A DNA stretch of 64,000 nucleotides, taken from the NCBI GenBank assembly GCA_964518565.1, contig CAZFGX010000001.1, positions 588,470-652,469 on the forward strand. Direction: 5' to 3'. This stretch comes from an uncultured Gammaproteobacteria bacterium (GTDB lineage: Bacteria > Patescibacteriota > Microgenomatia > CAZETR01 > Amesbacteraceae). The position numbers and the translations under genes are program-made. Of the stretch, positions 8,941 through 48,414 are shown in pieces; within the stretch, counting starts at the first letter, position 1, and every line of letters begins with the position of its first letter. The notes under the pieces were generated by a model. The model did no database searches. It was not told the origin of the DNA and saw only the letters and a list, made by a program, of their open reading frames with translations.

Positions 8941-11373
8941 ATGACACCATGTAAAATAGCTAGTATGACCCATGTTTGGTGGCATTATCACGTTGGGCTG
9001 ATCTATTACAAAAAATGGTGGCGCAAGCTATATCAAGCAATAAACCACTACTTCTCATTTGGCGACCTAATAAAAAATTTATTCTCACCCTGGAAAAGAA
9101 TTTCTTCTAGCTCAGGTAGTCACGCAAGTGTGAGCAAGCGCTGGGAAGCGTTCACCTTTAACAGTGTATCCAGATTTATGGGTGGATCTGTGAGAATAGT
9201 CCTATTTATAGCTGGAATATTTGCCTATGTATTTGCGACAGGTCTTGCCACATTAGGCTTTTTGCTTTGGTTAGTATACCCACCAATAAGTAGATCTATG
9301 CACACCCGGTACAAATTATTATTCCTACCCCAAGATTTATCCAAAAGTGGTTCAATCCCCATGGAAAAATTGTTTGACAATCCCGCTGGTCATTTTTTTC
9401 TTACCCATCTAGGAATTTCATCTGCAGATTTACTAGACGCAGCAACAAACAATGCCATTCAAACAAAACCAAACACTTCATCTTTTACAGACCTTATCTC
9501 TACCGCATTAGAACAAAATATATGGACTCCAGATTTTCTACGCAATCGTCAATTAACGGCAGACGACTTTAGAGCTACGGCATCATGGTGGGATTATCAA
9601 GCTATACAAAAATACCAAGTTATTCCCCAGACAGACTTTGGGCCAAGTTTTGGCTCCACTCTCACCTTTGGCTATACACCAAATCTAGACAAATACGCTT
9701 CAGATTTACGCCGTACCAAACTCACCTCAGCCGATATTCCTCGTCCAGATACCATAAATCGTTTAGAAAGAAGTGTCGTTGCAGGCAAAAGCGTCATTCT
9801 GGTCGGGCCACCTGGAGTAGGAAAAAAAGCTGCGATATTAGCAGTAGTCAAAAATATGGCTAATAATAGGCATTTTTTAGAGGTGGGCTTAAATGAAATC
9901 CTTTCAGAGTCGATCTACGATATTAACGGCAAAAAAGCCTTATTGACCAAAACACTCAAAGAAGCCAATAGTGCTGGCAATGTAACCATAATCATTCGAG
10001 ATATTCATCGATTCGTCAGCAGCAATGTCGACGGGTTTGATTTTTCTGATGTGATCGAAACTCAAATCGAAAAAGGTTTACAGATCATCGCCTTATCTAC
10101 AAATTCTGATTATGAAAAATATCTCTCGCCAAATTTAAAAATTCGCAAGCTATTTGAATCTATCGAAATTACCCCACCGAACCTTTCCGAGACACTCGAT
10201 ATTCTTATTGCTCGAGCACAAGAGTGGGAAAGCAAAAAACACCTTACTATTTTGACCCCTGCGTTAAGAAAAACTGTCACTCTCGCAGATAAATATTTGA
10301 CCGATCTCCCCTTTCCAACCAAAGCTGTTGAATTACTGGATGCGGCCATTGCGTATAAAACACAACAGCGCGGCTCCACAATCACTCCAACAGATATTGG
10401 ACACATACTGTCAGAAAAAACCGGTATTCCAATGACCAATCTATCCGCATCAGATAAGCAAAAATTGGCTACATTAGAAGACAATATTCATGCTCGCCTG
10501 GTTGGCCAAGATTTGGCCGTCTCTCTTATTGCCCGCAGTCTCAGAGCCCGAGCCACTGGCCTTGGTGGAGAAAACAAACCCGTCGGTTCGTTTTTATTTT
10601 TAGGTCCAACTGGTGTAGGTAAAACCGAAACAGCCAAAGCACTCGCCGAAGTTTATTACGGATCAGAAAACCAAATTATGCGTTTTGATATGGCCGAATA
10701 TGCACACCAAGATGGGCTAATGCGTCTTCTAGGATCTGCCCAATACAATATTCCCGGAACACTCACTACTGCGATAAAAAATCATGCAGCTGGACTATTA
10801 CTACTAGACGAAATCGAAAAAGCTCCTCCCCAAATATTCAATCTCTTTTTGACCTTATTAGATGAAGGCTATATCACCGATGCTTTTGGTCGAAAAATAA
10901 ACGCCCAACATTTATTTATCATTGCCACTTCAAACGCCGGATCAGAAGTAATTCGCGAATTAGTCGGCCAAGGTATAGTTGGCGAAAATTTACAAAAACT
11001 CGTATTAGAACACATACTGAAAAATGGCTACTTTTCACCAGAATTCATCAATCGTTTTGATGCAGCAGTTGTATACCAACCTCTTTCAGCTACAGACTTA
11101 GTCCATATTGCCCAACTCCAACTCACATCACTCCAACACCGTATGTTAGAACAAAACATCCGTCTAGATATAGATACCTCTGCAATTCAGCATTTAGCCA
11201 CGCGCGGATATGATCCAGCATTTGGAGCTCGGCCCATGAAACGTCTAATAGACCTGAGCATTGCCGACATGCTGTCACAAGCCATATTGGCCGGCAAAAT
11301 TAATCCCGGAGACCATATAACACTTACCGGTCACAACGACTTATTTTCCTGGCAACACGTGACCCAAAAGTAA
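8941..11373 (+). CDS. membrane-anchored Clp/Hsp100-family double AAA+ ATPase
   Basis: 810 aa; Walker A GPPGVGKK and second Walker A GPTGVGKTETAKALA; N-terminal hydrophobic hairpin (IVLFIAGIFAYVFATGLATLGFLLWLV); true start may be downstream. Confidence 0.72.
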   Translation: MTPCKIASMTHVWWHYHVGLIYYKKWWRKLYQAINHYFSFGDLIKNLFSPWKRISSSSGSHASVSKRWEAFTFNSVSRFMGGSVRIVLFIAGIFAYVFATGLATLGFLLWLVYPPISRSMHTRYKLLFLPQDLSKSGSIPMEKLFDNPAGHFFLTHLGISSADLLDAATNNAIQTKPNTSSFTDLISTALEQNIWTPDFLRNRQLTADDFRATASWWDYQAIQKYQVIPQTDFGPSFGSTLTFGYTPNLDKYASDLRRTKLTSADIPRPDTINRLERSVVAGKSVILVGPPGVGKKAAILAVVKNMANNRHFLEVGLNEILSESIYDINGKKALLTKTLKEANSAGNVTIIIRDIHRFVSSNVDGFDFSDVIETQIEKGLQIIALSTNSDYEKYLSPNLKIRKLFESIEITPPNLSETLDILIARAQEWESKKHLTILTPALRKTVTLADKYLTDLPFPTKAVELLDAAIAYKTQQRGSTITPTDIGHILSEKTGIPMTNLSASDKQKLATLEDNIHARLVGQDLAVSLIARSLRARATGLGGENKPVGSFLFLGPTGVGKTETAKALAEVYYGSENQIMRFDMAEYAHQDGLMRLLGSAQYNIPGTLTTAIKNHAAGLLLLDEIEKAPPQIFNLFLTLLDEGYITDAFGRKINAQHLFIIATSNAGSEVIRELVGQGIVGENLQKLVLEHILKNGYFSPEFINRFDAAVVYQPLSATDLVHIAQLQLTSLQHRMLEQNIRLDIDTSAIQHLATRGYDPAFGARPMKRLIDLSIADMLSQAILAGKINPGDHITLTGHNDLFSWQHVTQK

Positions 11374-12084
11374 ATTTTCAAACAAACAAGCCACAGTCAC
11401 AGGTCCCACCCCACCTGGCACAGGAGTAAAAAAACTACTTTTACTATTCACCTCTGATACAAAGTCTCCCTGAGGATACCCCACATCAATACAAATTGCC
11501 CCATCCGAAACCATATCCGGCAAAATTAATCCCTCTTGCCCAGTAGCTGAAATAATCACATCAGCATCGCGTATCTCCTTTACCGAAAAATCTTCTTTAT
11601 CCATTCCGACAACAGTATGTCGTTTCCCTAATTCATTTGCCACTTTCGAACCAACCGTTCCCCAAACTCCGACCACAACAATATTTAGATCATCTGCAGA
11701 TCTTTGGGTTATCAAAACAGCTTGGTCTAAAATTTTTAAAATCGCTCTCACTGTTGCTGGCAAATAAACACTTTCCTCTTGCATCCCATCTACATCTTGA
11801 TCAGGCAAAAACTTTTCTACTATCTGATTTGAGCCCAAAAATGGCAACTGCACCATTTTTCCATCTGCAACAGCTGACAAAAAATCTAGTTCTTGCTCAT
11901 AAACATCCATTTGCACTCCTAATCGTTGGGCGACACGTTTTTTCATTGCCACATATTTGACCCCAGATTCGTTATGCGAATCCAACAAAACCGCCAATAC
12001 TTTTTTTCGAGACATTTCAGGCAATTTCAACAATTGTCCAAGTATTTCCTCAGAAAATTGCTTCCCATCAAAAATCACACCCAT
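11341..12084 (-). CDS. folD: methylenetetrahydrofolate dehydrogenase/cyclohydrolase
   Basis: 247 aa, FolD-like throughout; convergent 33-nt overlap with the upstream ATPase gene. Confidence 0.82.
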   Translation of the reverse strand: MGVIFDGKQFSEEILGQLLKLPEMSRKKVLAVLLDSHNESGVKYVAMKKRVAQRLGVQMDVYEQELDFLSAVADGKMVQLPFLGSNQIVEKFLPDQDVDGMQEESVYLPATVRAILKILDQAVLITQRSADDLNIVVVGVWGTVGSKVANELGKRHTVVGMDKEDFSVKEIRDADVIISATGQEGLILPDMVSDGAICIDVGYPQGDFVSEVNSKSSFFTPVPGGVGPVTVACLFENLLLGHVLPGK

Positions 12085-12087
12085 ACA

Positions 12088-13755
12088 CTAATACGATTCA
12101 GACAGAGTAACAAACATTGAATAATTATTTTTATTGTTCACTAATTCAACTGAATTCAAATTAGCAGGAAAGGTACCAAATTCCATTCCTTTTGCAGTGT
12201 AGATCCCCACGCCAGTTGCGGAGTATTTCATATCGTTTACTGCCGGACTTTGCCCATTAGTGTTATACAACAACCAATACTGAGTTTTTTCAGATAAATT
12301 GGTGTGAATTGGCAATGTGTTCCACGAATGAGGTGTCAATACTCCCACCTGAGTCGTTGCCAACAAGTTGCCCGGCCGATTTGCAGCAGTATTTGAATAA
12401 ATAGCTAATTGAAAATTTTTATTCATGTCTGATGTATCTACTTCATCCACATATACACTAATAGATTTTGTAGTGCCGGCAGAGGTATTCATAAACCTGG
12501 AACCATTGATATATCCTGAATTTGAAGTATCAGTCAATTCGCCTACCGACGAATTTCCAATTGTATTAGCAGTTGTTTCTACTGGTAATGTAGAAAAACC
12601 CAACACTCCATTGGGCTTTGTCGAACTTTCACTAGACAAGTACATCGAAAAATTATTCCCAGTCAGCACCCCAGTACCAAAACTTGCAGGCCATCCTGAA
12701 CCAAAGGCTTGCGGCAATACACTATACACACCAATGCCATTTTTACCTGGCAAATACTTCAATGCATTGTCAGATGCAGTCTTGCCATTTGAATTGTAGA
12801 CCAACCAATAATATGTATTTGGCGACAATACAGCCGACATGGTTACTTTTTGCCACTCGGCTGCAGTATCCAATGTTTGGGTAGGACTACTAGCAATCAA
12901 CGATCCCGGCTTGCCATTTTGATCCGCAAAAATTGCCATGCCAAAGGTATTATTTGGCGCCGAGACAATGTTGGTAACTGCGACATATGCACCCAAGACC
13001 TGCATTGGCTCAGACCCAGTCTTTACGCGTAATCCATTCATATAATTTGCATTCAAGCTATCTATCATTGGCCCAATAACAAAATTTCCCACCCCATCAT
13101 CAGATACTTGTGCAGGTAACTCAGGTGAAGTAGTGGGCACAACAACGACAGTCGGAGTAACCACTACACGAGCCATACTCCGAGGTTGGTTCAATAAAAA
13201 AGAGATCGGTTCAACTTCAACTTTTAGTTTTTGTGAAACAGTATTTGTCACCTCTGAACCAGCCAAATCAATCGTCAACATAGTATTTGCGTTTACATCC
13301 ACAGTATTTGATGTGATCTGAAACGAAGCCAACTCAAATGTACCCATTGGCGCATTTGCCTTATCCTGTGCGGATACTCCCAAAACAACAGTCGCCTTAC
13401 CAGAAGAATTTGCTTCTGCCATAGTAGTTTTTTGGATGACAGTTTTTAATGCCGTTGCAGTATTGATCTCAGAAACCAAATGAATTTTTGTCTGGTCAAA
13501 TTGAATAGTAGCCCGCACCAAACCGACATTTTGACTACCAGAATCCAACACCAATCGCACATTTTGATTTGGCGGTAATCGCTGACTATCCGAAGTAAAA
13601 CGAAAATGTACTACCTGGTTTGCTGCTTGGATAGTGCCGCCTTGTTGCTGTCTTGCCAAATATACACTACCCGGAATAGCAACCACCAATCCCAACAAAA
13701 CCAACAATGGTGCCAATGAAAACCCACCTCGAAACGTATTCATGAATTTGCTCAA
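12088..13755 (-). CDS. secreted hypothetical protein with internally duplicated C-terminal domain
   Basis: 555 aa; N-terminal TM; two similar ~70-aa segments (YYWLVYNSNGKTASDNALKY / YWLLYNTNGQSPAVNDMKY). Confidence 0.5.
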   Translation of the reverse strand: MSKFMNTFRGGFSLAPLLVLLGLVVAIPGSVYLARQQQGGTIQAANQVVHFRFTSDSQRLPPNQNVRLVLDSGSQNVGLVRATIQFDQTKIHLVSEINTATALKTVIQKTTMAEANSSGKATVVLGVSAQDKANAPMGTFELASFQITSNTVDVNANTMLTIDLAGSEVTNTVSQKLKVEVEPISFLLNQPRSMARVVVTPTVVVVPTTSPELPAQVSDDGVGNFVIGPMIDSLNANYMNGLRVKTGSEPMQVLGAYVAVTNIVSAPNNTFGMAIFADQNGKPGSLIASSPTQTLDTAAEWQKVTMSAVLSPNTYYWLVYNSNGKTASDNALKYLPGKNGIGVYSVLPQAFGSGWPASFGTGVLTGNNFSMYLSSESSTKPNGVLGFSTLPVETTANTIGNSSVGELTDTSNSGYINGSRFMNTSAGTTKSISVYVDEVDTSDMNKNFQLAIYSNTAANRPGNLLATTQVGVLTPHSWNTLPIHTNLSEKTQYWLLYNTNGQSPAVNDMKYSATGVGIYTAKGMEFGTFPANLNSVELVNNKNNYSMFVTLSESY

Positions 13756-13760
13756 GCTTA

Positions 13761-14957
13761 CTAAACCAGTGGGAAACTCGTCAATAGTTGTCGTACTTCA
13801 CTATTGTATCGAACATCGCTTGAAAGAGCTTGAAAAATAAATTTGGCAATTTGTTTCATCTCAGCCTCCTTCATACCCAAAGTTGTTATAGCCGGAGTAC
13901 CCAATCGAATACCAGACGGCCGAAATGGCGGATTTGGATCATGAGGGATGGCATTCGCATTGACAATAATTCCTGAAGTTTCCAATTTTGTAGCTGCAAC
14001 CTTTCCATCCATACCAAACATTTGTACATCCATAACCATCAAATGATTATCAGTTCCACCAGTCACCAATACACACCCCAAGTCAGTCAAAGACTCCGCC
14101 AATTGTTGTGCATTGTTCACGACCTGATTCATCCGTGAAACAAATACTGACGATTGCGCCAAAATCATTGTTGCCGCAATGCCAGCTACAGTTGCATTAT
14201 GTGGCCCACCCTGCAAACCAGGAAACACCGCCCGATCAATCTTTTTGGCCAGTTGTTCATCGTTAGTCAAAATGACAGCTCCCCGAGGGCCACCCAGTGT
14301 CTTATGGGTTGTACTCATAACTACGTCCGCAATTCCTACAGGCGATGGATGACGGCCCGCCACAACCAGTCCGGCAATATGTGAAATGTCTGCCACCAAA
14401 TATGCCCCCACTTCCTGGGCAATATTTTTAAAACGTTGCCAATCAATAACTCGTGGATATGCCGTCGTTCCCGCAATAATGACTTTTGGTTTTTTCTCTC
14501 GTGCCAATTTCTCCACCTCGGCAAAATCAATCCATCCATTTTCATCCACATCGTATTGCACACTGGAAAAAAATTTGCCCGAAAACGTAATATCCGGATG
14601 ACCATGAGTCAAATGTCCCCCAGCTGACAATTTCATTCCCATAATACACTCACCCGGCTCTGCCAGTGCCATCAAAATCGCCGCATTTGCCGGACTCCCC
14701 GAATACGCTTGCACATTTGCATATCTTGCTCCAAATACTTTTTTGGTCTCCTCTATCGCCAACCGTTCTATTTCATCTATTTGTTCATTTCCTTGATAGT
14801 ATCGCTTGCCCGCATACCCTTCAGAATATTTATTATTCAAAAACAACGCTTGGGCTTTTAAGACATCAGCCGACTGATAATTTTCCGAAGGAATCAACAT
14901 CAGCGTCTGCTCCTGTCGCAGTCGCTCTTTTTCAATATATTGTAATAATTGATCCAT
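13761..14957 (-). CDS. glyA: serine hydroxymethyltransferase
   Basis: 398 aa; full-length SHMT similarity including the PLP-lysine region TTHKTLGGPRG. Confidence 0.9.
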   Translation of the reverse strand: MDQLLQYIEKERLRQEQTLMLIPSENYQSADVLKAQALFLNNKYSEGYAGKRYYQGNEQIDEIERLAIEETKKVFGARYANVQAYSGSPANAAILMALAEPGECIMGMKLSAGGHLTHGHPDITFSGKFFSSVQYDVDENGWIDFAEVEKLAREKKPKVIIAGTTAYPRVIDWQRFKNIAQEVGAYLVADISHIAGLVVAGRHPSPVGIADVVMSTTHKTLGGPRGAVILTNDEQLAKKIDRAVFPGLQGGPHNATVAGIAATMILAQSSVFVSRMNQVVNNAQQLAESLTDLGCVLVTGGTDNHLMVMDVQMFGMDGKVAATKLETSGIIVNANAIPHDPNPPFRPSGIRLGTPAITTLGMKEAEMKQIAKFIFQALSSDVRYNSEVRQLLTSFPLV

Positions 14958-29864: not shown

Positions 29865-30269
29865 TCAGATCATGTCCGGTGATGAATTTGGATCGGTCAT
29901 ATCGTGAACCATTAAATACAATCCTGCCCCCAACAGACCAGAAACCACAGCCACCAAAATCACACCAGTAGAATTCATATCCGGGAAACTGTGAAAATAA
30001 CCATAACTCTTTATCCATGGAACACAGAAGGTCATGATTTTTGTTTCCACAAAAGCCACAATACTCACACCACCAACCATTGGGAAAAAATGTTGGCCAG
30101 ATGTACCACGCGTACCACTGTATGTTTGAAATATCCACGTCATCAACAATCGCCACAAAAGTGAAAGCACTGCTGGCACAATAACCACACTCCCCAGCAT
30201 CAACACCGATACGATTATGATCATAATCTTACGCGTAAAAATTGGTGAATCGAAAGATATTCCTACCAT
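29865..30269 (-). CDS. small polytopic membrane protein
   Basis: 134 aa, 4 TM. Confidence 0.45.
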   Translation of the reverse strand: MVGISFDSPIFTRKIMIIIVSVLMLGSVVIVPAVLSLLWRLLMTWIFQTYSGTRGTSGQHFFPMVGGVSIVAFVETKIMTFCVPWIKSYGYFHSFPDMNSTGVILVAVVSGLLGAGLYLMVHDMTDPNSSPDMI

Positions 30270-30355
30270 TACTGCTGCAAAAAAAAATACTTACACCGAT
30301 CAACAAGCTAATAACACGAGGCGAAATCACAGTTGAAGCTTTCATAACACACTCC

Positions 30356-30748
30356 TTAAGAAACTGAATTTGAATTATGCATAAATGCAAAAGTCGGAAT
30401 ATAGAAAATCGCCGTAACAACAAGCATCATTGATACTGAATTTTGCGTCACTACCATACGAGATTCTGAATATTGATTCACCCATTCCACCCCAAAAACA
30501 TACAAAGTTGCTTCTAAGGCTAATACGGCAAACAAACCCATCACCCCAGCAAAGGCCAACTGCATGGTCGATAAAATCGTCAGTTTAGCCGCCAGCCAAA
30601 CCGCCAATTTTTTCCACCAATATCCAAAGACTATTGGTACAACAATCATTGAAGTACCCAACAAAATCGGGGCAACCAAAAGTAGCAATTGCATAAATCC
30701 TCCCAAACACTCTTTTTTAGTTATCAATATCAAAGTACAAACACTCAA
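30356..30748 (-). CDS. small polytopic membrane protein
   Basis: 130 aa, 4 TM. Confidence 0.45.
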   Translation of the reverse strand: MSVCTLILITKKECLGGFMQLLLLVAPILLGTSMIVVPIVFGYWWKKLAVWLAAKLTILSTMQLAFAGVMGLFAVLALEATLYVFGVEWVNQYSESRMVVTQNSVSMMLVVTAIFYIPTFAFMHNSNSVS

Positions 30749-30794
30749 AACAGCCGCATATAGGCTTAGTAAATGTTTATAGGCCTATTATATC

Positions 30795-30850
30795 AAAAAA
30801 ATACCCCCGAAAGCGTTTTCCACTTCCAGGGGTAAACAAATTGATAACTA
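30795..30850 (-). terminator. 56-nt repeat copy 2: hairpin plus U-run
   Basis: 56/57 identity to copy 1; directly after the stop of the 30857..31171 gene. Confidence 0.55.
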
Positions 30851-30856
30851 GAACGT

Positions 30857-31171
30857 TCAGACAAACCGTCGCAAAAACACAGTCAGAATCAAATCTGTGA
30901 GCACGTATCCCAACAGCACAAAACACGTGCTGAAAACTTTCACTATTACGTCACTTTCAATTACTGGCCACTGCATCACTGCAAAAATCATCATCACGAC
31001 ATATGGATACAAGACCCATGCCAAAACTCCACCCACTACATAAGAGTAATTTCTCAAGTTGTCTGGAACATTTGGCAAAGCAAACCGCCTCACACCCAAA
31101 CAAAACAAAATTCCAACGACAGCAGGGATGATCCCAATCCCAACAACCAACGAAAGAGTAGGCATATTCAT
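30857..31171 (-). CDS. small membrane protein (paralog of 31661..32008)
   Basis: 104 aa, 3 TM; shared C-terminal YVLTDLILTVFLRRF / YILTDIVLFRFFQRN. Confidence 0.5.
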   Translation of the reverse strand: MNMPTLSLVVGIGIIPAVVGILFCLGVRRFALPNVPDNLRNYSYVVGGVLAWVLYPYVVMMIFAVMQWPVIESDVIVKVFSTCFVLLGYVLTDLILTVFLRRFV

Positions 31172-31179
31172 GATAATTC

Positions 31180-31692
31180 TTAATTCACTCCTTCCAAAAC
31201 TTTACGAGCGTTACCGTATCCCATCAAATAAAAAACCACTGCCACACTTCCAAACAATAGTCTCCCTGTCCAGATGTGTGCCATTGAGTTATCTGACGAT
31301 CCAACAACCCAAGTATCTAAAGACCAAACGGTAAATTTACCTATACCATAACCCAGCAATATGGCAGTCAACACACCAACAAGTCGATCATATCTGAAAT
31401 ATCTTGCAGACCCACAAAGTGTTACGACCAACTTCCACAAAAGACCATAAATCACGTGCCCACAAACCAGAGGGACTAATACAAAGGCCACAATCCCCCC
31501 TAGAGCAAGAGCGATTTTTACAACAACATTAATGTAAAACATGAGCTCTGCAGAGGAAGCCAATGAGCCAAAAACCAACACGACAAGCAATATTGCAAAC
31601 CCTAAAATACTTACGCTCACTAAATTACGTTTTTTCCCAGTATTCATACAACCTCCAATATTAGTTCCTCTGAAAAAATCGAAACAACACAA
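31180..31692 (-). CDS. small polytopic membrane protein
   Basis: 170 aa ORF (start possibly the internal MNTGKK), 4 TM. Confidence 0.45.
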   Translation of the reverse strand: MCCFDFFRGTNIGGCMNTGKKRNLVSVSILGFAILLVVLVFGSLASSAELMFYINVVVKIALALGGIVAFVLVPLVCGHVIYGLLWKLVVTLCGSARYFRYDRLVGVLTAILLGYGIGKFTVWSLDTWVVGSSDNSMAHIWTGRLLFGSVAVVFYLMGYGNARKVLEGVN

Positions 31693-32008
31693 TGTCAGTC
31701 AGGATATACCCCACACCAACAAGTGCAGCGCCAAAGATATTCACCAGTACTTCAATCGTGGAAAGTGGCACACGTAAATACTCGACCACATCAGAAGCCA
31801 TATACATGCCAGAAAAAATCTGCATGGTGATTCGAGAATTCAAAAATCCCGACAACACACCACAAAACATGAGGGCAATCGGATAGCTCTGAAACTTCAT
31901 TCTGGGCAACACAAATGATCTCATAATCACACAAGCCACTAAACCGACAGTCAAAGACGCGATCACTACGCTCGCAACCACCCATCCCAAACTTGCTGTA
32001 ATATTCAC
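31661..32008 (-). CDS. small membrane protein (paralog of 30857..31171)
   Basis: 115 aa, 3 TM, conserved C-terminal motif. Confidence 0.5.
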   Translation of the reverse strand: MNITASLGWVVASVVIASLTVGLVACVIMRSFVLPRMKFQSYPIALMFCGVLSGFLNSRITMQIFSGMYMASDVVEYLRVPLSTIEVLVNIFGAALVGVGYILTDIVLFRFFQRN

Positions 32009-34114: not shown

Positions 34115-34657
34115 ATGTCAGCCATTGTCACTACCCCAAACCCAGTCCTCAAACAAGTGGCCAAACCTGTCACCAAAGTCGACAAAAAGCTACTCAGCCT
34201 CATAGACGACATGGTTCGCACACTTAATGCGGCCAAAGATCCGGAAGGTGTTGGTCTGGCGGCCCCTCAAATTGGCATTTCTCTACGAATATTCGTCATG
34301 CGACCAAACAAACGCTTCAAGCCTCGCGTCTACATCAATCCCGAAATTCTCAAGCTCTCCCAAAAAACCCAATCCGTAGATGACAACGATGGTGTCTATG
34401 AAGGCTGTCTGTCTATCCCCCACCACTATGCCCCCATCACTCGATCCCTTTCGCTCACTCTCAAATACCAGACACTAGATACAAATTCCGAGGCTGGATT
34501 GATCACCAAAACCGAGAAATTTACCGCTTTCCCCGCTCACATCATCCAACACGAAGTCGACCATCTAAATGGTGTTTTATTCACCGACCATGTCCTGTCC
34601 CAACAAACCAAGCTCTATCGAATCCATGGCAAAACCTGGGAAGAAGTCCAGCTCTGA
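34115..34657 (+). CDS. def: peptide deformylase
   Basis: 180 aa; GVGLAAPQIG, EGCLSIP and HEVDHLNG motifs. Confidence 0.88.
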   Translation: MSAIVTTPNPVLKQVAKPVTKVDKKLLSLIDDMVRTLNAAKDPEGVGLAAPQIGISLRIFVMRPNKRFKPRVYINPEILKLSQKTQSVDDNDGVYEGCLSIPHHYAPITRSLSLTLKYQTLDTNSEAGLITKTEKFTAFPAHIIQHEVDHLNGVLFTDHVLSQQTKLYRIHGKTWEEVQL

Positions 34658-34789
34658 TTGCCATTTTTGACTATAAGATATAAAATTCCTCCACTAGGTT
34701 GGCCCTTTGACATCGTAAAAATGCGTTTTTCGACCTCAAAAGGCACTAGAATCTTTCGTGTGTTTTTAGGAAAAAGTGAGGATATAGTA

Positions 34790-35377
34790 ATGGCAAAATT
34801 AGACATTCAATCAGCGGTGAGCCAGATTCAAAAATTGATGGACAAGCCCGGCGGCGCATCTCAACAAGAAATCGATGCCATCACGGCACAAGTTCCCAAA
34901 AGATTCCGCGTTCGTGTCATCCAACACGCCGGCGGAAAATGGACCGGCGAAGGTGAAAACCGAAGGTTTGTATACCGAGGAAAATCCTTCATTACCGCAG
35001 TCGCAATTCCAGTTCCCCAAATTTCATGCGGCCAGATTCAGGACTATGTCATGGAACTTCTGACACAATATCCATCGGGTATTCGCAGATCAGAATTCTG
35101 GAACAATATCGAAATCTTCGCTGGACGAAAACTATCGATTACCGACAAACAGTCCGCAATTGGGAAAGCACACGTCGTCCTCAAAAATGATGTGTACTAC
35201 CCACTTCGTCCAACAGCTGCAATTGAACATCCGGCAACCAAACTTCAAAGCACGCAAGTGATTGAAATGTATGCCGACGAGATTCAATCTAGCACAGCTG
35301 GAAAACTAGGTGCACGTTTCGATTTTGGTGGAAAAGTGAAACTGGTCATCCAAATTTTTGGTGGGAAAAAGGAGTAA
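34790..35377 (+). CDS. hypothetical protein with two winged-helix-like modules (cassette gene 1)
   Basis: start at MAKLD with an upstream purine-rich SD; the repeated module pattern is shared with the next four genes. Confidence 0.45.
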   Translation: MAKLDIQSAVSQIQKLMDKPGGASQQEIDAITAQVPKRFRVRVIQHAGGKWTGEGENRRFVYRGKSFITAVAIPVPQISCGQIQDYVMELLTQYPSGIRRSEFWNNIEIFAGRKLSITDKQSAIGKAHVVLKNDVYYPLRPTAAIEHPATKLQSTQVIEMYADEIQSSTAGKLGARFDFGGKVKLVIQIFGGKKE

Positions 35378-35381
35378 ATGT

Positions 35382-35792
35382 ATGTCGAGTCACGTGGCAA
35401 AAGAATACATCGTGCTCGAAATCATCGACAAAGTTCTAGCAAATCCACAACGACGAATCAGCAGACCAGATCTCTGGAAAATACTAGAAACAAATAGTAT
35501 CCAGAACCAACACCGTGGAGCATATATCGGAGCCGCAAAACTAAGAAAAATCAATTCATCGGGAAAAGGCGTGTACTACGAGTTACCCGAACAGTACACT
35601 CGCGAGAGTTTTAACCAAAAAACTATCAAACTCACACCGCGAACTATCAGCGCCCCGACATATGAACCCATCCCTATGGAAAAGAAAAAACCCAACAAGT
35701 GGATTCCGATTATTGGAATAGCAATCATCTTGATTGGTATTGCAGTCGGCGTGGCCTACTGGGCCAGCGTACTCGTGCAATCCGCACGATAA
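35382..35792 (+). CDS. wHTH-like module protein with C-terminal TM anchor (cassette gene 2)
   Basis: AAGGAG SD; N-terminal ...ISRPDLWKIL...GKGVYYEL; C-terminal IPIIGIAIILIGIAVGVAYWA. Confidence 0.5.
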   Translation: MSSHVAKEYIVLEIIDKVLANPQRRISRPDLWKILETNSIQNQHRGAYIGAAKLRKINSSGKGVYYELPEQYTRESFNQKTIKLTPRTISAPTYEPIPMEKKKPNKWIPIIGIAIILIGIAVGVAYWASVLVQSAR

Positions 35793-35804
35793 GGAGAAAA
35801 TTGT

Positions 35805-36617
35805 ATGCTTAACGACGAACAATACGCCACTCCTGAAGCCTTCGTCATGGACTTGCTTCAACGAGCCGGAACAACTGGCGTGAAGGTTAATCAACTAAAA
35901 ATGCTGCTCCAGCAACGAAACTATCCTTCACACGGTCGCGCACTTGGCATGCTTTTAGTTAAAGCAGGTACGATGAAAGTTGAAGACACCTACTTCAAAC
36001 TAGGTATTGTCGAAAAGGCAAACATGTCCAGCTCTGCAATTAACATCAAACAGGCAGCCAAAGTTGCAAGAATGATTGTCGAATCTCAACCAGGACAAAC
36101 TATCTTAAAAACACAATTTGTTCAAGAAATGGTTGCCAAAGGTTTGGACATATCAGTTCTCAGCCCTATCGAAAGGGGCCGACTTATCCTAACAGCCGGA
36201 CTGGCAAATACAAATTTGCAAGCGACTCCAGACCTGGAAAACCCAGAAAACGAAATCTGCTACACGCTAAAAAGCGTAGCATTTCGGAATGCTCGCGCTC
36301 AAAATCTTCCGATGATGAACGGCCCGCACGGCTGGGCAACAGGTCAAGGACCAAAAAACGAAGAGAGAAAGAAGCGGCATTATCGCCGGCGTAATCAAAA
36401 TCCCAATCCTCCACTCACTCCGCCATCAACCCAAGTTCCGACAGGAGCTATGGAAATCCCCTTCACTGCCGATGAAGTAACGATTAAAGGAGACAACTCC
36501 ACCTTTACGAAAACTGGCAAATTCAAAGTGTATTTGGTGCCTGTCGGCATCGTACTCTTATTGGTTGCCGCCGGCGTAATTTTCGCCCCTCAAATCGCCA
36601 AAGCATTTGGAGGGTAA
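35805..36617 (+). CDS. protein with two wHTH-like modules and C-terminal TM anchor (cassette gene 3)
   Basis: AAGGAG SD; ...GTTGVKVNQLKMLL...TYFKLG; Arg/Lys-rich linker; C-terminal VYLVPVGIVLLLVAAGVIFA. Confidence 0.5.
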   Translation: MLNDEQYATPEAFVMDLLQRAGTTGVKVNQLKMLLQQRNYPSHGRALGMLLVKAGTMKVEDTYFKLGIVEKANMSSSAINIKQAAKVARMIVESQPGQTILKTQFVQEMVAKGLDISVLSPIERGRLILTAGLANTNLQATPDLENPENEICYTLKSVAFRNARAQNLPMMNGPHGWATGQGPKNEERKKRHYRRRNQNPNPPLTPPSTQVPTGAMEIPFTADEVTIKGDNSTFTKTGKFKVYLVPVGIVLLLVAAGVIFAPQIAKAFGG

Positions 36618-36899
36618 ATGGCTACGTTAACCGAAGTCGCCACTGAACTAAGTCAATACTTTGCCGAAAAAGGAAGCGATGGCATAACGACGCAAGAAGT
36701 TGTCGCTTTTATGGTAGGAAAAAAAATAGTTGTGGGAGAAGTAATGAATGTGGTTCTACACAGCATCGGTGCAGAAAAAGTTGACGGTATTTACCGTCTC
36801 AATCCTAATGCACAAAAAACTGCACTAAATCCCAGCGTCGACACATGGGTAAGAGAGACAAAAAAACCCAGTGTTCCGGGAATTTCAAATCAAAAATAA
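36618..36899 (+). CDS. small wHTH-like module protein (cassette gene 4)
   Basis: 93 aa; ...GSDGITTQEVVAFM...GIYRLNP; start 1 nt after the previous stop. Confidence 0.5.
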   Translation: MATLTEVATELSQYFAEKGSDGITTQEVVAFMVGKKIVVGEVMNVVLHSIGAEKVDGIYRLNPNAQKTALNPSVDTWVRETKKPSVPGISNQK

Positions 36900-36911
36900 A
36901 AGGAAATTGAT

Positions 36912-37280
36912 ATGTCAAACAGTGAATTCAAAAATGCTATCGATCGTTTGAAACCAGTTCTCCAACAAGCCGGCAGTGCCGGTGTTACATCACAAATGTT
37001 TTTGGAGCTAACTGCACATCTAGACAAAATTGCCCGAGGTCGTCTCATCGGCTCCTTGCAGGCATTCACTCTGTCAAATGGAAATATTGCCTTACGCAAA
37101 TTCAAGACAACTGCCGAATCCGCTCCGGCATCTAATCACGAGTCTGGACCCGAATCTGCAAATGTGCATTCAGGTGTCAGCCAAGTAAGTTTTGAGGACA
37201 ACGCAGGTCGATCCTTGACGTACGGCCCAGAAGCGGGCAAAACGTTTACAGTGATCGTCCAAGAAAACGCGAAAAAGTAA
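36912..37280 (+). CDS. small wHTH-like module protein (cassette gene 5)
   Basis: 122 aa; ...GSAGVTSQMFLEL...IALRKF; GGAAA SD. Confidence 0.5.
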   Translation: MSNSEFKNAIDRLKPVLQQAGSAGVTSQMFLELTAHLDKIARGRLIGSLQAFTLSNGNIALRKFKTTAESAPASNHESGPESANVHSGVSQVSFEDNAGRSLTYGPEAGKTFTVIVQENAKK

Positions 37281-37306
37281 CCAACCTATCCCAGCATGCC
37301 GAAGAT

Positions 37307-37681
37307 TTATTTCTTCGTTGTGCTGGGTCTTTTTTTTGCCTGTCGTTGCTCCACTTTCTGTTTCCGACTCACTCGCAATTTTTCATGAATCTCTTGCACT
37401 TCATCTGGCACAAATGCTCCATCAGCAAGATACACCGGCACATCCCCCATTCGACTCATACCAGGAATTATTTTATGCGTCCCATCTGGCATCCGAATTC
37501 TGCGCACACGCCCTTTTACCACTTCTTTTTTCTCTCCCACATTCATGACATAGCCTTGACTCTCTACTCCGCCTTCGTCATACATATTTCCATCTCCACC
37601 CATTTCAGCATCATTTTCCGTATTCATTCCCAACTTTCGCTGGATGTCTGCAATACTTAGTCTTCGTTCAATACTCATCAC
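37307..37681 (-). CDS. hypothetical basic protein
   Basis: 124 aa, Lys/Arg-rich C-terminus, convergent with the cassette. Confidence 0.4.
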   Translation of the reverse strand: MMSIERRLSIADIQRKLGMNTENDAEMGGDGNMYDEGGVESQGYVMNVGEKKEVVKGRVRRIRMPDGTHKIIPGMSRMGDVPVYLADGAFVPDEVQEIHEKLRVSRKQKVEQRQAKKRPSTTKK

Positions 37682-37694
37682 GTATAATTGTACT

Positions 37695-38489
37695 ATGAAG
37701 TTGCAAATAGTTTTCTTTGGCTCGTTTCAACACTATTCAGTCTTAGTCTTAGAACAGCTAGAAAAACACTTTGAGGTAATTGGTGTAGTCACTACTCCTC
37801 CTCGCCCTGCCGGCCGTCACCTCAAACTCACATCTACTCCAGTAGCAGATTTCGCAAACCTCCACAAACTCCCACTATTCGAACCGCCATCATTAAAAAA
37901 CATCGATCCGACTACACTTATACCTACTCGACCAGACCTTATTGTCGTCGCTGGCTACGGCAAACTTATCCCCAAAAATTGGCTAGACTTTCCTACCAAA
38001 ATGGCCATCAACATGCACCCATCCCCACTACCCAGATATGCCGGCCCCATGCCTGGCGAATGGCAAATTCTCAATGGTGAAACCCAATCCGCAATTTCAC
38101 TTATTCAAATGTCCGAACAATTTGATTCCGGCGGTATTCTCGTCCAAATCCCGTTTAATATTTCACCTACTGAAACACGCGAAACATTTTACGATCGAGC
38201 CTTTCACCTAGCCGCAGACATTCTCGTAGCTGAACTACCAAAAATAGCCTCAGGTCAGATCACTCCTCACAGCCAAAATCCAAATCCCACAGCAGCCTCT
38301 ACCTACGCCAAAAAACTCACCCGGGAAGATGGATTTGTCTCTTGGGAGGATCTAAAAAAACCAGAAATTTTAGATAAAAAACGGCGCGCCTTCTTTGGCT
38401 GGCCAGGACTGTGGTCTATCAATCCTTCTGGCAAAAGAGTTAAAATCGTCTCATTAGAACCCATAAAATTAATTGAAGAAGGCAAATAA
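37695..38489 (+). CDS. fmt: methionyl-tRNA formyltransferase
   Basis: start at MKLQIVFFGS; formyltransferase N-domain with HPSPLPRYAG and a C-terminal domain. Confidence 0.85.
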   Translation: MKLQIVFFGSFQHYSVLVLEQLEKHFEVIGVVTTPPRPAGRHLKLTSTPVADFANLHKLPLFEPPSLKNIDPTTLIPTRPDLIVVAGYGKLIPKNWLDFPTKMAINMHPSPLPRYAGPMPGEWQILNGETQSAISLIQMSEQFDSGGILVQIPFNISPTETRETFYDRAFHLAADILVAELPKIASGQITPHSQNPNPTAASTYAKKLTREDGFVSWEDLKKPEILDKKRRAFFGWPGLWSINPSGKRVKIVSLEPIKLIEEGK

Positions 38490-39550
38490 TGTCCGAGATT
38501 AACACTTCACCTGAAGTAATAAAAAATCCCTATACAGGTATCAGATTTGAACCAGCCCAACATCGCTTAATCGGCAAAGATAACTTCAGCGAACCATATT
38601 TCAATCAGGAAGTTGCCAAAAGACTGGCACTCTATCAACCGCAAGTTTTAACTATCGAAGGCTTACCTAATACTTTAGGCCTCGGAATGGATGAAGAAAA
38701 AGATATTCCATTTCTCACGCGGGTCATACCAGGACCAATCGAAACGGTCTACGGCAAACATACAGATGTATACGTCATAGCTTCTGACAACTTTGAAACT
38801 GCTGCTGCGGCATTCACTACCAGTTTAAATGATGACGCATACAGTAAAGACGCAGGAGAAAGACTAAAAAAAGAAATGTACGCCACCCTACCCGAATTTG
38901 CCACCAAACCAGCAATTTACGCGAGTGTGCTTTTAGTTGGACTAGCTATCGATAAATTCTCTACCAAAACAGAAGAAAAAATGTCTAGAAGAAATTTTCT
39001 AAAAATAGCTGGCAAAACTGTCGCAGCTGCCGGATCAGCGGCATTTCTCGCCCAATTAAGCACCCCCTTTGCTGCCACAATGACCACAACGGAAGAAAGT
39101 AGAGATCATGTGCTCAGTGCGTTAGACACCATAGATCAACTTATCCAACCCACCAAACAAAAAATAATCAATGGCAGGACTGCAGAGCAAATAGCCCAAA
39201 CCCAAGACACTATCGACCATCTCGGTTTGCCCAAAAATACCGACGCAGCCGTCATGATGGGTTTTATGCACAGCTTTAATGCCCGCCAATTACTCAACGA
39301 CCCCCAAGAACGAGATTCTGCCATTCGCGAACTGTTTAAAATCCACAAACAATCTACAATTGAAACCTGCAAACAGCTCAAACTCTCTGCTGAAGAAACC
39401 GGACTTGCCGTAAATGTTTATCTTCCCGAATTATTCAAACGTATCAATCTATTAAAAGTTTCCACCCAAAAACCCCACAAACTTACAAACATGGTTACAT
39501 TCTATAGCCCTCAAATATCTTCAGCGATTCAAACAGTTCAAGAAGTATAA
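38489..39550 (+). CDS. hypothetical protein with internal twin-arginine (SRRNFLK) motif
   Basis: 353 aa; MSRRNFLKIAGKTVAAAGSAAFLAQL at residues ~165-190. Confidence 0.5.
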   Translation: MSEINTSPEVIKNPYTGIRFEPAQHRLIGKDNFSEPYFNQEVAKRLALYQPQVLTIEGLPNTLGLGMDEEKDIPFLTRVIPGPIETVYGKHTDVYVIASDNFETAAAAFTTSLNDDAYSKDAGERLKKEMYATLPEFATKPAIYASVLLVGLAIDKFSTKTEEKMSRRNFLKIAGKTVAAAGSAAFLAQLSTPFAATMTTTEESRDHVLSALDTIDQLIQPTKQKIINGRTAEQIAQTQDTIDHLGLPKNTDAAVMMGFMHSFNARQLLNDPQERDSAIRELFKIHKQSTIETCKQLKLSAEETGLAVNVYLPELFKRINLLKVSTQKPHKLTNMVTFYSPQISSAIQTVQEV

Positions 39551-47845: not shown

Positions 47846-47883
47846 CAGCACCCTGCGGCTCACGCCAACGGGTGCTTTTTTTA
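47846..47883 (+). terminator. intrinsic terminator
   Basis: CAGCACCC...GGGTGCT stem followed by TTTTTTT. Confidence 0.65.
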
Positions 47884-47925
47884 TGCCTTGTAGTATTTCA
47901 CTTCAGCTATTGTTATGATTGGCAT

Positions 47926-48285
47926 ATGTCATTCAGATTTCGTTCAGCTGTCATTTACGATCGAGTCCATTTGTACGCCAAAGAAATGTACAACATGACC
48001 GGTCGCTTTCCCGAATATGAACGCGACGGTCTGATCAAAGACATTCGGTCCACCTGTCTCAATCTAGTCAAAGAAACCGCTATCACCTTAAACAAACCCA
48101 AAGGCCAAGAAGAAACCAAAGATTCCTACAAACAATGCCTCAATAGTATTAGTGAACTGGTGGCCTTATTTGATTTTGCCTTCCGAATGGAATACATCTC
48201 CGAAATTCTTCATACTCGGGCGATTCAATTTTCTGAAGATGCAATGAAATACCTCTACGAAGCCAAAGACGTCCACGGCAAATAA
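47926..48285 (+). CDS. four-helix-bundle protein (23S rRNA IVS-type family)
   Basis: 120 aa; FRFR...IY...MTGRFP.YERDGL..IRS pattern matches the family. Confidence 0.6.
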   Translation: MSFRFRSAVIYDRVHLYAKEMYNMTGRFPEYERDGLIKDIRSTCLNLVKETAITLNKPKGQEETKDSYKQCLNSISELVALFDFAFRMEYISEILHTRAIQFSEDAMKYLYEAKDVHGK

Positions 48286-48312: not shown

Positions 48313-48384
48313 GCCTGGGTAGTTCAGTGGTAGAACGCATTCTTGGTAAGAATGAGGTCGAGAGTCCGATTCTCTCCCCAGGCT
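48313..48384 (+). tRNA. tRNA-Thr (anticodon GGU), no encoded CCA
   Basis: hand fold: acceptor GCCTGGG/CCCAGGC, anticodon loop TTGGTAA. Confidence 0.85.
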
Positions 48385-48414
48385 CACTAGCACTATTACC
48401 AAAATAGCGTCGAG

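Follow-up and report, generated by a model that had tools for sequence, protein, structure and literature searches.

Allelic cassette loci that are kept by recombination through conserved flanks include the pneumococcal comC/blp pherotype locus, the type I hsdS genes, and pilin variants. Tandem winged-helix proteins free of a catalytic domain are represented by the kite proteins (ScpB, MukE, Nse1, and Nse3), which are conserved housekeeping subunits. The genomes of the Candidate Phyla Radiation (CPR)/Patescibacteria are small and rich in orphan genes, and how they vary between strains has hardly been explored. Here, an islet of five plus-strand orphan genes, designated as g1 to g5, was analysed between def (peptide deformylase) and fmt (methionyl-tRNA formyltransferase) in a 64,000-nt stretch of contig CAZFGX010000001.1 (assembly GCA_964518565.1, positions 588,470–652,469 of the forward strand), which comes from an uncultured bacterium placed by GTDB in the Amesbacteraceae of the Patescibacteriota. 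The whole of this stretch is called the window, and all positions are those of the window. Tentatively, g1–g5 are read as a lineage-specific accessory operon of membrane-associated winged-helix binders that includes two allelic cassettes, g1 and g3, and is probably conflict-related.

The locus resembled the comC/blp, hsdS, and pilin loci in that identity between strains shifted sharply at gene borders, with saturated synonymous divergence (dS) inside the variable genes and low dS outside, and in that the conserved neighbours were under purifying selection. The strain variants compared were short contigs of other samples, of which L053, L051, and L052 covered the g1 side and L018 covered the g3 side. 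In L053, the def protein was 96% identical to that of the window, and the spacer between def and g1 was up to 100% identical. Nucleotide identity then fell from 100% to about 45% over some 50 nt at the g1 start, stayed low throughout the gene, and was back to 89–100% at about position 35354. L051 and L052 had another, third allele of g1, and its right-hand junction was that of L053. Two g1 alleles, P0006 and P0007, shared 38–39% amino acid identity with g1 within conserved flanks. All three alleles had the same architecture and kept the core and wing motifs GGAS, AGKW.G, R(R/H)FV.R.K, EFW, KYYP(L/V), and VKLVIQ.

On the g3 side, the 38 nt up to and including the g3 start codon were 100% identical between L018 and the window, positions 35808–36536 were not alignable, and identity broke sharply at 35807 and at 36537. 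From 36537 on, nucleotide identity was 87–100%, and the segment 36667–37026 (g4 and the start of g5) was 98–100% identical; the g4 and g5 proteins were 99% and 89% identical, respectively. The g3 allele P0002 (205 aa, 39% identity) was found to lack the first module of g3, and the amino acid sequence of its transmembrane tail was 100% identical. The number of modules varies between the g3 alleles. In addition, two contigs of sample SRR29476927 (L054 and L055), both 100% identical to the window, overlapped by 10 nt (35901–35910) and both broke off about 100 nt into g3. Co-existing g3 alleles in the sample may have forked the assembly graph at this point.

In the variable segments of g1 and g3, dS was saturated (1.7 to infinity) and nonsynonymous divergence (dN) was 0.6–0.8, while dS in the flanks was 0.12–0.49. 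Because dS was saturated inside the cassettes and low in their flanks, the alleles are old and not merely fast-evolving, and homologous recombination through the conserved flanking segments has carried them from one background to another. The dN/dS ratio was 0.12 for g2 (90% amino acid identity to L053), 0.04 for g4, 0.20 for g5, and 0.14 for gm, the minus-strand neighbour of g5 (the last three against L018), and 0.06 for def against a strain variant. Ratios of 0.04–0.20 indicate that the islet genes are functional, and purifying selection on g2, g4, and g5 was shown by these codon comparisons. The dS of gm against L018 was 1.3, far above that of its neighbours. The proposal of an earlier note on this DNA that the genes form a cassette array therefore holds in one sense: between strains, g1 and g3 were swapped for deeply divergent alleles (36–39% identity) set in flanks of 89–100% identity. 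It does not hold in the sense of an integron-like or recombinase-linked array. The locus also differed from the comC/blp, hsdS, and pilin loci in that its variable proteins are predicted to be cytoplasmic or tail-anchored winged-helix proteins, and in that the window yielded no silent donors, invertible repeats, or recombinase. No paralogues or silent donor copies of the islet genes were present in the window or in 50-odd other loci.

The fold was assigned from a model of g1. AlphaFold2, run on an alignment of three sequences (g1, P0006, and P0007), gave a mean predicted local distance difference test (pLDDT) score of 66 and two well-defined domains, one at aa 1–64 (nt 34790–34981, pLDDT 74–88) and the other at aa 77–140 (nt 35018–35209, pLDDT 68–83); the C-terminal 55 aa were modelled with low confidence. 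Domain 1 consisted of a helix (6–17), a β element, two helices (25–32 and 37–47), and two strands (49–52 and 59–62), and domain 2 of a helix (80–93), a β element, two helices (100–111 and 117–127), and two strands (129–132 and 135–138). This H-b-H-H-b-b order is the canonical winged-helix topology, in which a tri-helical helix-turn-helix (HTH) is followed by a β-hairpin wing, and the model thus showed a winged-helix fold for both g1 domains. Foldseek analysis of the g1 model against the PDB returned a list that was almost wholly winged-helix and consisted mostly of tandem proteins, including ScpB (3w6j, E 7e-3, template-modelling score (TM-score) 0.2), the tWHD of Rpc5 (8e-3), Nse1/Nse3, and SelB WH2-4. 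Rpc34, Rok, cullin WH-B, and an RpoE model (rank 21, E 0.23) were further matches.

BLASTP among the five islet proteins gave nothing significant. With leave-one-group-out hidden Markov models (HMMs), g5 and the first module of g3 (g3M1) exceeded all 300 shuffles, the second module of g1 (g1M2), g2, and g4 were marginal, and g1M1 and g3M2 failed. Smith-Waterman comparison against shuffles gave z values of 5.8 (g1M1–g5), 5.2 (g3M1–g5), and 3.6 (P0007M1–g5), with all others below 3 and a median of 0.39 over the module pairs. Alignment of mini-profiles by hhalign linked g5, g3M1, and g1M1 in register (31–33%), and g1M2 was in register with g2 over 54 columns (44%, E 2.4e-4). The link of g4 to the other modules was weak (5% with g5 in hhalign), and what g4 and g3M2 had in common with the other modules was only a pattern visible by eye. 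By these similarities the winged-helix fold may be extended to g5 and the N-terminal module of g3, and g2 is probably a relative of g1 domain 2 and winged-helix by extension; for g4 and the second module of g3 the fold is unproven. Of the seven copies of one module counted in the earlier note, three to four were supported by sequence, and a single module repeated seven times was not. A C-terminal pattern of the form aromatic-x-A/E-D-E/N...G-K-x-K/F-V/L-x-L/I-V was also seen by eye in g1 (aa 155–190), g3 (215–245), and g5 (90–120), and in g3 it leads straight into the transmembrane helix. As a shared motif ([FY]xADE...GK.K.V) it was discarded, because the hhalign scores were at chance level.

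Comparison with described winged-helix proteins placed g1 near the kite proteins in architecture. The g1 model shares with them two consecutive winged-helix domains in about 190 aa and the absence of a catalytic domain, and ScpB and Nse1/3 chains were the commonest of its Foldseek matches. Unlike them, g1 had no sequence-profile match (Pfam, PDB sequences), its TM-scores were 0.2–0.3, and the islet contains neither a kleisin nor an SMC gene; moreover, the kite proteins are conserved housekeeping subunits, while g1 is strain-hypervariable and lineage-restricted. Membership of the ScpB/kite family was rejected for g1, which matched no SMC_ScpB or MukE profile and has no kleisin or SMC partner in the islet. 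The islet modules are also similar in size (about 60–70 aa) to HARE-HTH (PF05066, e.g., RpoE delta) and the MarR winged HTH (wHTH), and have a comparable pattern, in which a G-x-hydrophobic-aromatic-x-L wing strand comes after three helices. However, RpoE has an acidic tail and MarR has dimerisation helices, and the islet proteins have neither. MarR membership was rejected since the winged-helix domains of the g1 model stand back to back without flanking dimerisation helices and no Pfam match was obtained. Judged from its model, g1 resembles the tandem winged-helix adaptors (kite, Rpc34, and SelB) in fold and is a member of no profiled family.

Database searches gave few relatives. None of g1–g5 or gm had a credible match in Pfam, PHROGs, PADLOC, or NCBIfam, and an hmmscan of g1–g5 against Pfam-A at E ≤ 1 returned no HARE-HTH, MarR, ScpB, Imm, or antitoxin family, which leaves the HARE-HTH or MarR assignment suggested earlier without support. 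Among 5.8 billion protein clusters, g3 matched only itself and P0002, and g5 only itself and an 89% variant. Exhaustive HMMER analysis of 1.84 billion representatives with g1 recovered g1 itself, P0006, and P0007; another match, P0008, was rejected as a homologue because it was a repetitive junk sequence. The g1-family profile had no match among PDB sequences, and the PDB-sequence matches of a profile of eight modules (a designed repeat protein and the LATS2 UBA domain) were short and considered spurious.

Hydropathy analysis bore out a single C-terminal transmembrane segment after a basic linker in both g2 and g3. The segments comprised residues 107–128 of 136 in g2 (nt 35700–35765) and 242–262 of 270 in g3 (nt 36528–36590), with Kyte-Doolittle maxima of 2.6–2.7 (19-residue window), a lysine-rich N-flank (4 K each), and an 8-residue C-tail. 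No islet protein had a signal peptide. With a single C-terminal transmembrane segment, no signal peptide, and a positive-inside N-flank, g2 and g3 have the predicted topology of tail-anchored proteins and, since there is no signal peptide, the bulk of each should face the cytoplasm. The net charge of g1, g2, and g3 was +9 to +11, that of g5 was +2, and g4 was neutral.

The islet genes were tightly packed. The left border is def (34115–34657, +; Pep_deformylase PF01327, 2.7e-40) and the right border is fmt (37695–38489, +; Formyl_trans_N PF00551, 1e-27). Between them lie g1 (34790–35377, +), which encodes a soluble, basic protein of 195 aa with the two modelled winged-helix domains and is the first hypervariable allelic cassette; g2 (35382–35792, +), which encodes a strain-conserved 136-aa protein with an N-terminal wHTH-like module and a C-terminal transmembrane anchor; g3 (35805–36617, +), the second hypervariable allelic cassette, with its variable stretch at 35808–36536 and a 270-aa product in which two wHTH-like modules are joined by a basic linker to a C-terminal transmembrane anchor; g4 (36618–36899, +; 93 aa, one wHTH-like pattern), the most conserved of the islet genes; and g5 (36912–37280, +; 122 aa), whose N-terminal module is related to g1 domain 1 and g3 module 1. 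The small, basic gene gm (37307–37681, −; 123–124 aa) is convergent to g5 and divergent to fmt. The open reading frames (ORFs) and the raw sequence thus agreed with the earlier description of five packed plus-strand genes and one convergent minus-strand gene that split def from fmt. The gaps g1/g2, g2/g3, g3/g4, and g4/g5 were 4, 12, 0, and 12 nt, and a purine-rich Shine-Dalgarno site, as had been claimed for every gene, was found at all five (GTGAGGA, AAGGAG, AAGGAG, GGAGGG, and AAGGAA, from g1 to g5). Independent gene calls on 100%-identical Logan contigs reproduced the protein lengths.

The gene set given in the earlier note was retained, and its start at 34658 was corrected: the TTG at this position is no more than the first codon of the frame left open behind def, and the true start of g1 is the ATG at 34790. 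The 132 nt between them (34658–34789, + side) are an intergenic, noncoding, and conserved spacer with a promoter-like site, TTGCCA-17-TAAAAT, at 34658–34686 (promoter scan match 10/12). The 90 nt from the end of def into the spacer (34634–34723) were 100% identical between the window and L053, against 89–98% for def itself, which could reflect a conserved promoter/operator or a very recent recombination tract. No structured RNA was predicted in the def-g1 leader (folding z = 0.21), and an Rfam analysis of the window matched tRNAs alone.

Comparative analysis of the def-fmt junction showed that the islet is restricted to a narrow lineage. The best species-representative match of def was a Candidatus Amesbacteria metagenome-assembled genome (59%), followed by Blackburnbacteria and other Patescibacteria, which places the window in a CPR bacterium of the Microgenomates group. 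The order wzy-like gene, def, fmt, M50 peptidase gene was kept across Microgenomates relatives. In about 25 Microgenomates loci, including L002–L005, L007, and L023–L037, def and fmt were 0–175 nt apart. In the nearest relatives, L019 (def 65%) and L043 (def 62%, fmt 51%), the gap was about 370 nt in both and held a single small basic ORF in the place and orientation of gm (986–1309, −, and 182–619, −, respectively). No homologue of g1–g5 was found by tblastn in the def-fmt locus of any relative. Since def and fmt are adjacent in the relatives and the nearest two have only the gm-like ORF, g1–g5 are a lineage-specific insertion, as the earlier note had proposed, and we conclude that they came in as one block at the point where def and gm face each other with their 3′ ends. 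The GC skew at third codon positions (GC3 skew) of the top strand also set the block apart: it was −0.23 to −0.31 in g1–g5, against −0.50 ± 0.12 in the window's 54 other genes (Mann-Whitney p = 0.0009); gm, at −0.62, was native-like. Gene gm is probably an older resident of the junction, outside the insertion. The gm, L019, and L043 proteins have in common their position directly upstream of fmt, their size, and a basic C-tail. Orthology of gm by sequence was dropped, because BLASTP detected no similarity between gm and its counterparts in L019 and L043; their orthology is positional only.

In Amesbacteria L001 (MEXP01000025.1) and in L020–L022, def and fmt were split by 3.4 kb of unrelated genes, and it looks as if the def-fmt junction took up accessory DNA more than once in this clade and is a recurrent landing site. 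The L001 cargo (10546–13930) encodes a 373-aa plus-strand protein with a central transmembrane segment and minus-strand orphans of 151, 84, and 474 aa, none of which had a Pfam family. The same operon was present at def-fmt in strain-level relatives (about 90% nucleotide identity) and missing from those at the genus and family levels, a mixed outcome for the alternative of an ancient lineage feature raised in the earlier note. Its premise that def and fmt are almost universally adjacent held for this clade. As a general statement it is too strong, as the two genes were co-localised in 58% of bacterial species in a 2025 survey (PMC12690207).

On the reading preferred here, insertion between def and gm, whose 3′ ends face each other, would have disrupted nothing, and the genes would be transcribed as an operon from their own promoter-like site and be translationally coupled. 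The products are small, mostly basic proteins that would share winged-helix-type domains. Among them, g1 is a soluble tandem winged-helix protein, and g2 and g3, predicted to be tail-anchored, would hold their domains on the cytoplasmic face of the membrane. Since an enzymatic domain is absent, the proteins most likely act by binding. In a membrane-associated complex, they may bind nucleic acid, partner proteins, or one another; nucleic-acid binding is suggested by nothing more than the fold and the basic charge, and complex formation among the islet proteins is likewise presumed. In such a complex, g1 and g3 could be the variable "specificity" subunits and g2, g4, and g5 the conserved scaffold, with old alleles of g1 and g3 kept in the population and exchanged by homologous recombination via the conserved flanks. 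A conserved scaffold with variable subunits is a signature of balancing or diversifying selection. Because long-lived alleles in recombining backgrounds are typical of such selection, a role in conflict or recognition is preferred, namely in sensing or keeping out phages or foreign DNA or in marking a strain's identity; as a specific function it is possible but still rather unlikely. A housekeeping regulatory role seems less likely than this one. We think it improbable that the locus is an enzyme-free CPR conflict or recognition system made of winged-helix proteins only, with a g2/g4/g5 scaffold and a swappable soluble g1 and membrane-tethered g3. In that case, balancing selection would keep the g1 and g3 alleles, and the system would, for example, sense or exclude particular phages or foreign DNA at the inner membrane face or provide strain identity towards the host bacterium.

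Four other explanations were weighed against this tentative reading of g1–g5 as an accessory, conflict-related operon. It is unlikely that the islet is the remnant of a prophage or mobile element whose small early or regulatory DNA-binding genes were left after integration at def-fmt, even though such an origin would fit small, tightly packed orphan genes with winged-helix folds, the atypical GC3 skew of g1–g5, and the different cargo at the same junction in the sister lineage Amesbacteria. No direct or inverted repeats or att sites bordered the g1–g5 block, and no integrase or transposase was detected by Pfam among ORFs of at least 110 aa in about 15.7–56.9 kb of the window, where the neighbours scanned were unassigned or had housekeeping roles (topA, tmk, PBP2, mreB, a pilB-like ATPase, and sugar-metabolism genes). 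Assignment to a prophage or integrative element was rejected after PHROG, repeat, BFVD, IMG/VR, INPHARED, and PLSDB searches had all been negative: IMG/VR held no relatives of the g1 family, the g3 family, g2, g4, or g5, the INPHARED phages and PLSDB plasmids held none of g1 or g3, and BFVD gave no fold match at significance. The operon was, moreover, stable at one site in strains about 10% apart in nucleotides. Integron or recombinase cassette arrays and acquired immunity islands are likewise rows of small co-directional orphans at a variable chromosomal spot; the islet differs from integron arrays in having no attC-like repeats, integrase, or inter-cassette repeats and in being coupled like an ordinary operon. 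No repeat family lies between the genes, whose gaps of 0–12 nt leave no room for attC sites, and as no repeats, attC-like sites, integrase, or phage or plasmid relatives were found, an integron-like or recombinase-associated array is not supported. Quite unlikely, too, is an immunity- or antitoxin-type array, that is, orphan cassettes against polymorphic toxins or an unrecognised toxin-antitoxin set in which strain alleles match strain toxins. Neither a toxin gene or fragment in the islet nor, even at E ≤ 1, a Pfam Imm or antitoxin family was found, the tandem winged-helix fold is atypical of immunity proteins, and a recombinase is missing, in contrast to acquired interbacterial-defence islands; in favour of such an array are the tandem small genes, the hyper-divergent g1 and g3 alleles with old dS in conserved flanks, and the two membrane-anchored products.

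A further explanation is that g1–g5 are lineage-specific housekeeping DNA organisers or transcription factors, either ScpB/kite-like adaptors or RpoE-delta-like HARE-HTH proteins, some of which tether DNA to the membrane. The best Foldseek matches of g1 (ScpB at 7e-3, then Nse1/Nse3, with the RpoE model at rank 21), the basic charge of the proteins, and the housekeeping genes around them agree with it, but those matches reflect a generic tandem winged-helix architecture at TM-scores of 0.2–0.3. The absence of g1–g5 from all genus- and family-level relatives examined, the hypervariability of g1 and g3, and the lack of a Pfam ScpB, HARE-HTH, or MarR match and of an SMC or kleisin partner in the islet make this explanation very doubtful. 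The module pattern may also be due to chance, the islet being five unrelated orphans that merely lie side by side and are perhaps in part nonfunctional. Most module pairs did resemble shuffles, g1M1 and g3M2 failed the leave-one-out analysis, BLASTP was silent, and the g3 model was unreliable. This explanation has a low probability given that g5, g1M1, and g3M1 are related (z 5–6), that g1M2 and g2 are in register over 54 columns, that both g1 domains are predicted winged helices, and that dN/dS ratios of 0.04–0.20 show function.

Several points weigh against the accessory, conflict-related operon itself. The hypervariability could come from relaxed constraint plus recombination, and diversifying selection is less readily expected on cytoplasmic proteins than on those at the surface. 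PADLOC-DB v2 returned no family at E ≤ 1 for g1–g5, gm, or g353, a 353-aa orphan gene downstream of fmt. The Foldseek list of g1 contained no match below E = 1e-3, and its TM-scores were about 0.2–0.3. The AlphaFold2 model of g3, built from a two-sequence alignment, reached a pLDDT of only 42.8, with three helices per module and no confident wing, and its Foldseek result was meaningless; the winged-helix fold expected from structure prediction was thus obtained for g1 (two domains) and not for g3. The population sample was tiny, with three alleles of g1 and two of g3, and the few contigs that carried them were all short, which leaves a thin evidence base.

The accessory-operon reading is of interest since the locus is compact and well delimited, structure prediction assigned a fold to at least one of its orphans, and the population comparison picked out g1 and g3 as likely targets of balancing or diversifying selection over the long term. 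Neither the fold nor the islet is out of the ordinary; what is unusual is their combination in a CPR genome, as enzyme-free and partly tail-anchored winged-helix proteins of which two are anciently polymorphic. If the conflict reading is true, the islet would be an enzyme-free defence or recognition module that current defence-finder tools cannot see. Otherwise, the def-fmt junction would still be a place where accessory genes have landed repeatedly in the Amesbacteria-related clade.

Several other features of the window were observed. The gene g353 (38489–39550, +) lies between fmt and the M50 peptidase gene and shares an ATGA overlap with the fmt stop codon. It had no tblastn counterpart in any relative locus, its GC3 skew was native-like, and its product contains a twin-arginine-like motif (SRRNFLK and a hydrophobic stretch) in mid-protein, at residues of about 158–190, and not at the N-terminus. 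The top-strand GC3 skew of the window (−0.50 ± 0.12) held regardless of gene orientation, which is a very strong strand bias; the cumulative skew fell monotonically over 30–42 kb, so at least that part lies within one replichore arm. From mreB to the wzy-like gene (29865–32008, −), several small ORFs of about 102–170 aa had no Pfam family and could be divergent mreC/mreD or further orphans. An ORF of 137 aa at 47872–48285 (+), just upstream of tRNA-Thr (48313–48385), matched the "23S rRNA intervening sequence protein" family at 27.3 bits, which is below the cutoff of 33.8 bits.

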